Source: an uncultured bacterium (GTDB lineage Bacteria > Chlamydiota > Chlamydiia > Chlamydiales > FEN-1388). From it: DNA of 64,000 nucleotides. The notes beneath the pieces were generated by a model. That model had not been told where the DNA came from and did not search any database. It saw nothing but the letters and a program-made list of their open reading frames with translations. The stretch lies in NCBI GenBank assembly GCA_964514655.1, contig CAZEQY010000008.1:2631-66630 (forward strand), written 5' to 3'. This document shows positions 56,625-59,444 of the stretch, one piece after another (position 1 is the stretch's first letter; each line of letters begins with the position of its first letter). Made by a program: the position numbers and the translations under genes.

Positions 56625-59444
56625 TTAGTAATTTCCTTCATCAAGAGATGTTGCAGATGCTTGAGGCATTGTCTTTACTAGTGCCTTTAATTCTTCAGCC
56701 CTTCTTTTAAAGCCTTCTACTTCGTTTTGCCAGGCTTTTGGTAGGTTATCTACCTGTTCAGCTAGACGCTCAGCTCTGTGGATCATTTTTTCGATAAACG
56801 TTGGACCAATTAAGTCTCGATACCAAAACGTAAATCTCAGCTTTTCCATCTTCGTGCCATCTGCAAGTAATGGGAGGGTAATCTCCCTCGTAGAATCTTG
56901 ATTCCTTTTTAGGGCATACGCACAAAAATGCATGGTAATTCTGATTGTGCTATTAATCGCATCTGCCATGTTGCGCATCGTTTGAATATCTGCTCGGCCT
57001 TGTGACTTAAGAGTCGCAACAGATTGTTCTAATTTTTCGATCGCGCTCGTCATATCCCTAAAGCCTTTGTACGCACTTCCCTGTTCGCAGAAGCTGATAA
57101 TTTTTTTCATCTGCTCTAGGTTAAATTTAATAGCTTCAAAATCATTTTCCCCAGTCTTTGAAACTGGAAAAACGTGCGTGGCAACATCTGTCACACCTGG
57201 CTTAAGCGTAGCCTGAGCCCACCCAGCCGCTAAAAGCAATCGAGAGCCATATCGGGTCATGAATGTAGTCTGACTCTGTTGCCCCAGCAGGGTATCTAAA
57301 GCCTGTGAGACGCCCTCTTCTTGTCCTTTACTTAGGCGATCTACAAGTGCATTAGCGACCTTATGTTCTAGTTCCTCGAGTTTGACTTCTACAGCGCTCT
57401 TGTGGAACCCTTCTGGCAACTCCTTCACTGCCTGTTCCGCCTTTTTGAAATCAAGCTTCTGCAATAATGCGGTTAATTCCTGGGCAGTACAGGTAGGGAT
57501 CTTTTCTGCAGCTTGAAATAAAGGCTCAAATAGTGGGCGTATCGTGTCAGGTAGTGGTATAGGGGCATTCGGGTTGAATACAACGTATATTGTTGCACCG
57601 CTTTGCAACTCTTTTACATACTTTTGCTTACCAGGCTCTTCGTTGCCAATAACTGCCCCATTATATATCAGCCGGATTTGCTGGCTTGCCACCCCTAAAT
57701 CCTGAGCTACTTGCTCTTTAAGTTCTGTATACGTGATATTTTGCAAATAGCCCTTATTTTTTGTATGGCCCGTTAAAGTCTTGATATGTAACTGAATAGT
57801 TTCTGTGCCTGCATTTGCCGGAGCTTGAGTCGCTTTGGTAGCGGCCTTTGGAATTACTATTGCTATATCTGCCACGCACTCTCTTACGAATTTTTCAGAA
57901 CCAGGAGATTCATTACCAACCTCCTTCCCAGCACATAGTAGCCGAAATCTCTCTTTTGGCAGCTTTAATTTTTCAGCTATTTGGTCTTTGAGAGCAGAAC
58001 AAGAAATGTTTTTTGAAACCGGCATATCAAGAGTTTTCCCACCTTCCATCGTTAGGCGATACCCCCATTTTTGGGCGACGACTTGTTCTGGCTGCACTTG
58101 TGTTCGATGTGTTGTATAGGCGTCGTTGATGGATGTATGCAAGACCTTCTTTTCATCAACGGATAGTGATGAATAGACTTTTCTATCTTGCGCAGGAATT
58201 TCTCGATCAAAGCAAGGAAGCAGAGTTTGTTCAATGGATTCGACCCCAGAGCCTACTGTGGACTGCTCTTCAAGCATCAATGCACGGGCGCGCAACTGAG
58301 CGACAACATCAATCTTTGGTAATAGAGTTTCTCTCGGCATTGTCTTTTCTAGGTCTTCGATATCACGAGCCATACTATCAAGGACAATGAATTGACCGCT
58401 TCGATCTTTTCCTGTCTGACAATTCACAATCACGGGATGGTTTCTATCTCCTGCGACAAATGTATTAACGAGATCCACCGTATATTGAGAAAGAGCAAAT
58501 GGCACTGCAACAGAAGTAAAATCTGGAACAATTTGCTGAATTGTACCGGTTGGCGCTCCATTTTTTTTCACGGTCAACCGTCTAACGTGATAGCTGCATT
58601 CGCCTGTAAGGTCTGTTTTAGCTTGGATTTCTTTAGGTAATGGAATCTTTAGCTCTTCCTTAGCACATGTCACTTCATAGCTGTCGCCATCTGATTGAAA
58701 TGTAATCGATTCCCCGGGAGAAAGAAAATCCATTATCGTTGGATCTACTCTACCTGCTCTATATCCTGAATTCACCGTTACAAGGACTTGTGCACCTGAT
58801 TCAACAGCCATTTGATAATAATGAGCTCTGCTATTTGCCTTATCGTTAGTGGGAGCTTCTGCTTGTATGTATGTATTATTTCCAATCTGCACCTTATTTG
58901 CAGGATAGCAAAGATCCGTCCCCTTGAGCTTGACAAGAGTGTCTAAGTTCGTTCCATAGGCACGATGACATCGTGGGATCGAGGGCTTTTCGTCACGACG
59001 AAATTCTTGGACAAGCTTGCTATTGATTGTATCTTTTTCAGCAGAGGAATCCTGATAACGACTGGCAGCAGCTTCACGTAGTTTTGTGAAATCATCATCA
59101 GAAAATTTCTGTAAAAGTAGAGGGGCATTCTTTATGGCTACCTGTAGTAAGCCAGGAACCAATTTACATATAGTTGTGAGCCTAGCTGTGGCTGGTGCGT
59201 TGTTATCAAATGGGTCAACAATTGAAAATTTCCTAATTTCCTCAAGTTGCGACTTTCCTAGATATAGAGCCTGACCACCTTTCGCTTGCACCCTAACCAA
59301 GTCAAAAAAGTTGCTTAGGAGTTTGACCAACCAGCTATCTTTGTACACTCTGATTCGTTGGGTAGTGCCGCCTTGAGATGTCATTTCAAGCTGCCCGCGG
59401 TTATACCACTTTCCAGGGTCGTAAGTAAAATTAACATTAGCCAT
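56625..59444 (-). CDS. multidomain effector-like protein: classical PTP-like phosphatase domain (CX5R) plus two tandem ubiquitin-like domains plus a helical C-terminal region
   Basis: 939 aa. PTP-like features: YIQAEAP (compare YIATQGP), HYYQMAVESGAQVLVTV (compare FWxMVWEQ..VIVML), IVPDFTSVAVP (WPD-loop-like) and HPVIVNCQTGKDRSGQFIVLD (C342-X5-R-S). UBL1 is about aa 460-533 (YRLTMEGGKTLDMPVSKNISCSALKDQIAEKLKLPKERFRLLCAGKEV). UBL2 is about aa 548-624 (IQLHIKTLTGHTKNKGYLQNITYTELKEQVAQDLGVASQQIRLIYNGAVIG...ATIYVVF), strikingly like ubiquitin MQIFVKTLTGKT...QQRLIFAGKQL. Confidence 0.65.
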   Translation of the reverse strand: MANVNFTYDPGKWYNRGQLEMTSQGGTTQRIRVYKDSWLVKLLSNFFDLVRVQAKGGQALYLGKSQLEEIRKFSIVDPFDNNAPATARLTTICKLVPGLLQVAIKNAPLLLQKFSDDDFTKLREAAASRYQDSSAEKDTINSKLVQEFRRDEKPSIPRCHRAYGTNLDTLVKLKGTDLCYPANKVQIGNNTYIQAEAPTNDKANSRAHYYQMAVESGAQVLVTVNSGYRAGRVDPTIMDFLSPGESITFQSDGDSYEVTCAKEELKIPLPKEIQAKTDLTGECSYHVRRLTVKKNGAPTGTIQQIVPDFTSVAVPFALSQYTVDLVNTFVAGDRNHPVIVNCQTGKDRSGQFIVLDSMARDIEDLEKTMPRETLLPKIDVVAQLRARALMLEEQSTVGSGVESIEQTLLPCFDREIPAQDRKVYSSLSVDEKKVLHTSINDAYTTHRTQVQPEQVVAQKWGYRLTMEGGKTLDMPVSKNISCSALKDQIAEKLKLPKERFRLLCAGKEVGNESPGSEKFVRECVADIAIVIPKAATKATQAPANAGTETIQLHIKTLTGHTKNKGYLQNITYTELKEQVAQDLGVASQQIRLIYNGAVIGNEEPGKQKYVKELQSGATIYVVFNPNAPIPLPDTIRPLFEPLFQAAEKIPTCTAQELTALLQKLDFKKAEQAVKELPEGFHKSAVEVKLEELEHKVANALVDRLSKGQEEGVSQALDTLLGQQSQTTFMTRYGSRLLLAAGWAQATLKPGVTDVATHVFPVSKTGENDFEAIKFNLEQMKKIISFCEQGSAYKGFRDMTSAIEKLEQSVATLKSQGRADIQTMRNMADAINSTIRITMHFCAYALKRNQDSTREITLPLLADGTKMEKLRFTFWYRDLIGPTFIEKMIHRAERLAEQVDNLPKAWQNEVEGFKRRAEELKALVKTMPQASATSLDEGNY

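Follow-up and report, generated by a model that had tools for sequence, protein, structure and literature searches.

A chlamydial protein that combines a classical-type cysteine phosphatase domain with two ubiquitin-like domains

We analysed a stretch of 64,000 nucleotides (the window) from contig CAZEQY010000008.1 of assembly GCA_964514655.1, which is assigned below to an uncultured environmental chlamydia. One gene on its reverse strand codes for a protein of 939 residues which consists of a protein tyrosine phosphatase (PTP) domain, two ubiquitin-like (UBL) domains and a helical tail. Domain matches in Pfam, searches with family profiles, a predicted structure and a fold comparison all support this architecture. 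The protein is a new domain combination of known kinds of parts, found in a lineage that is known for eukaryote-like proteins. An earlier note, made from the sequence alone, had described the gene as a phosphatase fused to two ubiquitin-like folds. The open reading frame (ORF) and the motifs which it quoted proved to be correctly placed.

Phosphatase and ubiquitin-like domains

The phosphatase domain was detected by the Pfam family Y_phosphatase (PF00102) with E=7e-10 and 39.4 bits, as compared to a gathering score of 20.9. The match extends over residues 171-385 and covers profile positions 18-212 of 234 (195/234). The motifs that had drawn attention to the domain are located at residues 192-198 (YIQAEAP), 208-224 (HYYQMAVESGAQVLVTV), 305-315 (IVPDFTSVAVP) and 338-350 (VIVNCQTGKDRSG). 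Alignment to PTP1B with hhalign (probability 97.6) pairs CYPAN with DYINA, YIQAEAP with YILTQGP and HYYQMAVE with HFWEMVWE. It also pairs VPD308F with WPD181F, and VNC342QTGKDR348SG with VHC215SAGIGR221SG. As judged from the sequence, the predicted catalytic cysteine (C342), the arginine (R348) and the general-acid aspartate (D308) of a cysteine phosphatase are in place.

The earlier note had named C342 and R348 as the residues to be followed in homologues. Together with D308 they are invariant in the two closest homologues, P0002 and P0003, which are 53% and 49% identical to the query (BLASTP). In an alignment of 21 sequences of phosphatase-domain relatives, the consensus motifs are YPAN, YIxAEAP, YYQM, QxxPDF and (I/V)NCxTGKDRS. 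The cysteine, aspartate, arginine and serine of the P-loop are each conserved in at least 90% of these 21 sequences, and the D308 position is variable in the distant members. The profile built from this alignment matches LAR (2e-18), RPTP-alpha and -epsilon, SHP2 (6e-12) and PTP1B (4e-11), with E-values that range overall from 2e-18 to 1e-10.

An AlphaFold model that was computed without an alignment had a mean predicted local distance difference test score (pLDDT) of only 42 and was unusable. It was replaced by an AlphaFold2 model based on a 44-sequence alignment (mean pLDDT 69.8), to which the structural statements in this text refer. Scores are below 50 for residues 1-114, above 90 for 160-410, 70-87 for 461-529, again below 50 for 530-546, about 90 for 549-623 and 72-80 for 630-745. 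All four modules are predicted to fold. The phosphatase domain is extended by a conserved helix (residues 429-449). A Foldseek search of PDB with the phosphatase returned PTPN4 (2i75), PTPN2 and PTP1B at E ~3e-7 with target TM-scores of 0.56-0.59. In a viral structure library, Foldseek found PTPs and ubiquitins of giant viruses, always as separate proteins. The assignment to the classical PTPs that had been made in the earlier note is thus upheld by Pfam, profile and fold; it does not extend to several details of the active site, which are described further below.

The Pfam run, which reported 15 families at E up to 10, also assigned ubiquitin (PF00240) in two stretches with E=5.3e-12 and 45.8 bits against a gathering score of 25.4, the best stretch being residues 553-624. 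Both families for which a Pfam search had been suggested are therefore above their gathering scores. When compared to PDB by phmmer, residues 468-620 align to polyubiquitin as two successive units (E ~5e-8). All these values are well outside the range of chance matches. As had been anticipated, both segments are modelled as beta-grasp folds: residues 461-529 and 549-623 show the order beta-beta-alpha-beta-(beta or short helix)-beta. Foldseek matches of the UBL pair in PDB are linear di- and tetra-ubiquitin (E ~5e-9) and ISG15 (~1e-7).

The claim that UBL2 is close to ubiquitin itself turned out to be too strong. Its identity to ubiquitin is 29% over 70 aligned residues (38% to NEDD8), and that of UBL1 to ubiquitin is 32% over 41 aligned residues. 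UBL1 and UBL2 are 33% identical to each other. An insertion GNE(S/E)PGxxK(F/Y)V is common to both and absent from ubiquitin, and thus the two domains arose by internal duplication or diverged together. In UBL2 a KTLTG motif is found and the hydrophobic patch is kept, L557/I593/V622 being at the positions of L8/I44/V70. UBL1 has kept the K48 equivalent (K507), has a leucine (L503) at the I44 position and has kept V530.

Neither domain is followed by Gly-Gly. UBL1 ends with IAIVIPKAAT and UBL2, for which the lack of this signal had been noticed before, with IYVVFNPNAPIP. Because Gly-Gly is absent and both domains are internal, they are integral, non-conjugatable domains and not modifiers. The two are separated by a flexible linker of 14 residues, so that the pair lacks the fixed geometry of Met1-linked di-ubiquitin; over both UBL domains the Foldseek matches to linear di-ubiquitin have a root-mean-square deviation (RMSD) of 11-17 Å. 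A recent transfer of the UBL domains from a host polyubiquitin gene was considered and is not supported, given the identity of ~30%, the shared private insertion and a GC content like that of the rest of the gene.

The C-terminal module and the distribution of relatives

The last ~300 residues had been described as a helical region. Residues 630-925 are indeed all-helical except for one beta-hairpin, but the region is not generic. Its first part (residues 630-745) has no detectable relatives, whereas residues ~750-925, modelled as a helical bundle with the hairpin, form a distinct module that recurs in other proteins. Five independent homologues (P0010, P0012, P0017, P0028 and P0040) carry this module, P0012 and P0017 in two copies, without a tie to the phosphatase of the query. 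The module occurs alone, in tandem, behind putative transmembrane segments (P0010, P0012) and, in P0028, behind a DSPc dual-specificity phosphatase domain (E=4e-15). The module is therefore found together with Cys-phosphatases of two different folds. Its homologues share a loop motif, C-(R/P/E)-(E/Q)-G-S-A-Y-K-G-F, which is strongly conserved and corresponds to query residues 786-795 (CxEGSAYKGF). No significant match to the module was found in Pfam or PDB, the best PDB matches being flagellin (E=0.026) and IncA (E=0.042). It may be a shared module for localisation or partner binding. We consider it an uncharacterised and previously undescribed domain family that is worth defining.

Word-indexed homology searches returned only 2-4 relatives each. 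Therefore the distribution of the protein is described here from an exhaustive phmmer search of 1.84 billion protein-cluster representatives, which resulted in 55 matches. About 30 of the 55 share the phosphatase domain, and these represent a small, divergent family of ~30 clusters at 50% identity. None of the 55 carries the phosphatase together with the UBL segments, and no description of a PTP-UBL effector was found in the literature searched, so that the combination is as unusual as had been suspected. On their contigs, the genes of P0002 and P0003 are complete, and they end soon after the phosphatase. Other members of the family, P0004 and P0008, have N-terminal ankyrin repeats. The catalytic cysteine has been lost in P0004, which has NWNTGKDRS, and P0027 lacks the P-loop; by sequence, these two may be pseudophosphatases.

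Most of the contigs that carry homologues are 2-5 kb long and were uninformative as to taxonomy. The distant family member P0026 (L084, 8001-9083) is found in a Firmicute-like context, with SpoIIID, a Spo0E-like protein, a sigma factor, an integrase and dUTPase, and the phosphatase family is therefore not confined to Chlamydiae. P0038 (L092, 1459-2664) from the metagenome-assembled genome (MAG) GCA_030147755.1 is a protein of 401 residues that ends with RLRGD and has a transmembrane helix at its N-terminus and three UBL domains in tandem. Its gene is located between a sigma-54 activator-like and a GerE-type gene. Bacterial proteins with ubiquitin folds thus exist elsewhere, and what is unique is the combination of these folds with a phosphatase.

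Source organism and possible function

Ordinary bacterial genes are found elsewhere in the window, among them those for alanyl-tRNA synthetase (AlaRS), Mfd, ClpB and transketolase. The closest relative of this AlaRS, with 88% identity, is from a MAG labelled 'Chlamydiales bacterium'; six other MAGs, of which four carry the label Chlamydiales, follow with 76-81%. The next-best matches are ~44% identical and come from Gammaproteobacteria. These identities are the reason for assigning the window to an uncultured environmental chlamydia. The gene itself is intact (939 codons and a stop codon). It starts with the first start codon after the upstream stop (ATG at 59444), and a strong Shine-Dalgarno sequence, GGAGG, is found 6 nt before this ATG. 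Eukaryotic contamination or a chimeric assembly was rejected because of the bacterial Shine-Dalgarno sequence, the bacterial neighbours and the matching GC content.

We think that the protein is probably, though far from certainly, a modular host-directed phosphatase of an environmental (amoeba-type) chlamydia that is docked by its UBL domains. It would be exported into the cytosol of the eukaryotic host without a Sec signal, most plausibly via the chlamydial type III secretion system (T3SS). There the UBL pair would serve as a docking handle that resembles uncleavable linear di-ubiquitin or ISG15, with UBL2 supplying the hydrophobic patch. Host receptors of ubiquitin or UBL domains would be bound by this handle (Rpn1/Rpn10/Rpn13 of the proteasome, UBA/UIM adaptors, p97 cofactors, autophagy receptors), and the C-terminal module would contribute localisation. 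Proteins which are held nearby would then be dephosphorylated by the phosphatase, most likely at phosphotyrosine. Such docking would be analogous to the way in which UBLCP1, a eukaryotic UBL-phosphatase, operates at the proteasome.

Several observations argue for this host-directed function. The genome is from Chlamydiales, the protein has a disordered N-terminus and no signal peptide, and the gene lies within a run of orphan genes with a low GC content at third codon positions (GC3). The ankyrin repeats of P0004 and P0008 and the pairing of the C-terminal module with DSPc in P0028 represent a domain shuffling that is typical of effectors. Docking by the UBL domains is suggested by the hydrophobic patch retained in UBL2 and by the precedent of UBLCP1, the UBL of which binds Rpn1 (PMC5451543, PMC3646893). 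The N-terminal region, which is weakly similar to the N-termini of P0002 and P0003, is a candidate secretion or chaperone-binding region; its composition was non-discriminating as an indicator of type III secretion.

A more far-reaching version of this proposal is possible, but we regard it as doubtful. The protein would be the first bacterial phosphatase with a built-in, non-cleavable handle resembling di-ubiquitin or ISG15. After injection into a protist host, it would be recruited by ubiquitin readers (proteasome, p97 adaptors, autophagy receptors) and would remove phosphorylation marks by which degradation or xenophagy is controlled. Its UBL domains would have evolved to be labile for the sake of the T3SS, and several Cys-phosphatase proteins would share the CxEGSAYKGF module as a new targeting domain. 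If our main proposal is correct, the protein would already provide a tool for finding the phospho-regulated steps of the ubiquitin, proteasome or autophagy machinery of amoebae. The impact is limited since the gene is a singleton in an uncultured organism and the functional steps are our interpretation.

A number of points weigh against a host-directed, UBL-docked tyrosine phosphatase. Asparagine replaces the histidine before the catalytic cysteine, and valine replaces the tryptophan of the WPD loop. The KNRY loop could not be mapped: alignments by hhalign and HMMER begin downstream of it, at PTP1B residue 57, and a candidate, HRAYGTN (residues 160-166), requires gaps to be placed and has a tyrosine that is not conserved in the family. 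The Q-loop could not be mapped either, as a semi-conserved E-x-Q-S-T (Q394) falls on neither Q262 nor Q266 of PTP1B in the HMMER alignment. The P-loop has the form GKDR(S), as compared to G(I/V)GR in classical PTPs, and because this form matches that of the broad-specificity phosphatase MptpB, the specificity for phosphotyrosine is uncertain. In UBL1 the L8-type residue of the patch is missing and E467 is found instead. Neither a secretion signal nor a chaperone was seen in the window, nor a T3SS gene among its annotated ORFs, and none of these was tested for. Unfolding of ubiquitin is reportedly beyond the ability of the T3SS (PMC13351618), so that two ubiquitin folds could hinder export unless they are mechanically labile. 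This leaves three possibilities: the divergent UBL domains are labile, export takes another route, or there is no secretion at all. No orthologue was found in the 185,579 GTDB species representatives which were scanned with an alignment of close homologues; the protein is thus a singleton, and conservation cannot argue for its function.

The details of the active site lead to the first alternative, which we consider unlikely, although it has the best standing of the three. According to it, the enzyme is not specific for phosphotyrosine. It would act on phosphoinositides or have a triple specificity like MptpB and would remodel the lipid identity of the vacuole, with the UBL domains and the C-terminal module used for targeting to membranes or partners. 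The P-loop C-Q-T-G-K-D-R-S shares G-K-D-R-(S/T) with the loop 160-CFAGKDRT of MptpB, an enzyme with specificity for phosphotyrosine, phosphoserine/phosphothreonine and phospholipid (PMC7822160). A weak match to Y_phosphatase3 (E=0.022) is restricted to the P-loop (residues 323-355). The substitution of the histidine and the unrecognisable KNRY loop, which sets the depth of the pocket, point in the same direction. On the other hand, fold and sequence are nearest to the classical, phosphotyrosine-specific PTPs and not to MptpB, PTEN or myotubularin, and a WPD-type aspartate is found at the classical position. Neither is there a Pfam match to IpgD/SopB at E up to 10. A likeness of the P-loop to that of IpgD/SopB was considered and rejected, as this Pfam match was missing and the motif string had no match in the literature. 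The fold of the phosphatase is classical, and phosphotyrosine seems the most likely substrate, with lipid as the main alternative.

A second alternative concerns the UBL domains and appears less likely still. They would not be handles for ubiquitin receptors and would instead be generic beta-grasp adaptors (Ras-binding, PB1, FERM-F1), intramolecular regulators of the phosphatase, or a decoy or inhibitor for deubiquitinases, deISGylases or readers of linear ubiquitin. This would be consistent with their low identity to ubiquitin and their private insertion, with the altered patch of UBL1, and with weak Pfam matches of UBL1 to PB1 and NPL4-UN. In addition, the top fold matches are complexes of linear di-ubiquitin with UBAN, NZF and OTU proteins, together with ISG15. 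However, the best family for both domains is ubiquitin proper (PF00240) and not RA, RBD or PB1, the residues of the I44 patch are kept in UBL2, and the linker and the RMSD differ from the geometry of Met1-linked di-ubiquitin.

We consider it quite improbable that the protein is not exported and acts inside the bacterium, or that it is a decaying recent fusion without a selected function: the gene is a singleton also among related Chlamydiales MAGs, ubiquitin folds are apparently poor T3SS substrates, P0004 and P0027 have lost the catalytic cysteine and export is itself our interpretation, but the ORF is intact with a strong Shine-Dalgarno sequence, the catalytic residues are all intact and each module is predicted to fold. 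We also know of no obvious partners for ubiquitin-fold, ankyrin and classical PTP domains inside a bacterium.

Gene surroundings and comparison with known systems

The features of the gene are collected in Table 1. The bacterial neighbours of the gene are an MtnA-like member of the IF-2B family, an aldo-keto reductase-like ORF, DUF1398 and HXXEE. No paralogue of the protein was found in the window, and an Rfam scan of 55.5-64 kb gave no match.

Table 1. Features of the gene for the 939-residue protein, with positions in the window.
Feature	Residues	Position	Strand	Basis
Whole gene	1-939	56625..59444	-	ORF list; identical protein present once in an NCBI-derived protein collection, on a 108.5-kb contig
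Translation/transcription signals: GGAGG and promoter-like site TTGACA (-35-like)/AATGAT (59510-59483)		59445..59510	-	Sequence read and consensus scan; TTGACA/AATGAT is a pattern match only
N-terminal region: polar, predicted mostly disordered, no Sec signal peptide	1-154	58983..59444	-	pLDDT <50 for 1-114
Classical-type Cys-phosphatase (PTP) domain with conserved C-terminal helical extension	155-450	58095..58982	-	Pfam, family profile, hhalign, pLDDT, Foldseek
WPD-loop equivalent IVPDFTSVAVP; D308 putative general acid	305-315	58500..58532	-	Aligned with WPDFGVP of PTP1B
P-loop VIVNCQTGKDRSG; C342 predicted nucleophile, R348 predicted to bind phosphate	338-350	58395..58433	-	Aligned with VVVHCSAGIGRSG of PTP1B
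UBL1	458-533	57846..58073	-	Pfam ubiquitin stretch; beta-grasp model, pLDDT 70-87
Flexible Ala/Thr-rich linker between the UBL domains	534-547	57804..57845	-	pLDDT <50 for 530-546; insertion relative to linear di-ubiquitin (phmmer)
UBL2	548-626	57567..57803	-	Pfam ubiquitin, best stretch; pLDDT ~90; Foldseek
Helical region without detectable relatives	630-745	57210..57557	-	Helices with pLDDT 72-80; covered by 0/55 phmmer matches
Recurrent C-terminal helical module	~750-925	56670..57197	-	Independent homologues P0010, P0012, P0017, P0028, P0040

Upstream of the gene, an intergenic inverted repeat (59768-59881) has arms of 45 nt that are 96% complementary and are separated by a 24-nt spacer. 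It has no Rfam match, and its sequence is found at no other place in the window. A mechanically called ORF (59545..59889, reverse strand) overlaps this repeat and is probably spurious. The adjoining orphan ORFs at 60526-61635 (forward strand) and 61650-62795 (reverse strand) have GC3 values of 0.29 and 0.38, respectively. They have no Pfam match above threshold and nothing significant in PDB. The former contains repeated 'NCxNL...' segments which are reminiscent of leucine-rich repeats. Both may be further effector-like genes.

Near the end of the window, an ORF at 63064-63990 (reverse strand) has an RVT_1 (reverse-transcriptase) and a GIIM (group II intron maturase) domain and is therefore a group II intron-encoded protein; a group II intron RNA was not found by Rfam at gathering score in 55.5-64 kb. 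A protein of 1755 residues with RHS repeats and DUF6531, of the polymorphic-toxin type, is encoded at 36997-42264 (reverse strand), with small ORFs downstream (34.7-37.0 kb). Two genes on the reverse strand, at 1209-3572 and 44737-45975, code for proteins with collagen triple-helix repeats (Pfam Collagen, E 1e-18 to 2e-21), which are another eukaryote-like feature of this genome.

Eukaryote-like PTP effectors and eukaryote-like proteins of the ubiquitin system are already known in intracellular bacteria, and it is their physical fusion which is new. With the classical PTPs (PTP1B, PTPN4, LAR, SHP2), the protein shares the fold and the order of motifs, which are DYINA-like (CYPAN), YIxTQGP-like (YIQAEAP) and FWxMVWE-like (YYQMAVE), followed by VPD and CX5R(S). 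It differs from them in the active-site substitutions, the GKDR P-loop and the lack of an identifiable KNRY loop or Q-loop. YopH of Yersinia and SptP of Salmonella are likewise bacterial, with a eukaryote-like PTP domain and a non-catalytic N-terminal region; delivery to the host is presumed for the query. Both are missing from the best 60 matches of the profile and the best 50 of the fold search, which are eukaryotic PTPs without exception. To our knowledge, neither YopH nor SptP has ubiquitin-like domains or a C-terminal helical module, and we know of no UBL domains in MptpB. The latter, from M. tuberculosis, is a Y_phosphatase3 protein which has the P-loop signature G-K-D-R-(T/S) in common with the query and belongs to another overall fold family.

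Linear (Met1-linked) di-ubiquitin and ISG15, the top matches in Foldseek and phmmer, also have two tandem ubiquitin folds on one chain. The identity to them is ~20-30%, and the query differs in having the 14-residue linker and in lacking a terminal Gly-Gly. As the UBL pair lies midway along a chain of 939 residues, it represents a domain pair and not a modifier. The protein would be a test case for a current question of secretion biology, namely whether ubiquitin folds can be exported by a T3SS and, if so, how.

UBLCP1 is similar in that a non-conjugatable UBL is fused to a protein phosphatase. With its UBL, UBLCP1 docks on the Rpn1 subunit of the proteasome, and it removes phosphate from the proteasome (PMC5451543, PMC3646893). 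In contrast to the query, which is Cys-based and has two internal UBL domains, UBLCP1 is a eukaryotic protein with a single N-terminal UBL and an Asp-based catalysis of the FCP/SCP (HAD) type. No HAD/NIF domain was detected in the query by Pfam. The resemblance is one of functional analogy and not of homology. If our proposal is correct, bacteria would have re-invented the principle of UBLCP1, namely that a UBL brings a phosphatase to ubiquitin receptors, with another catalytic fold.

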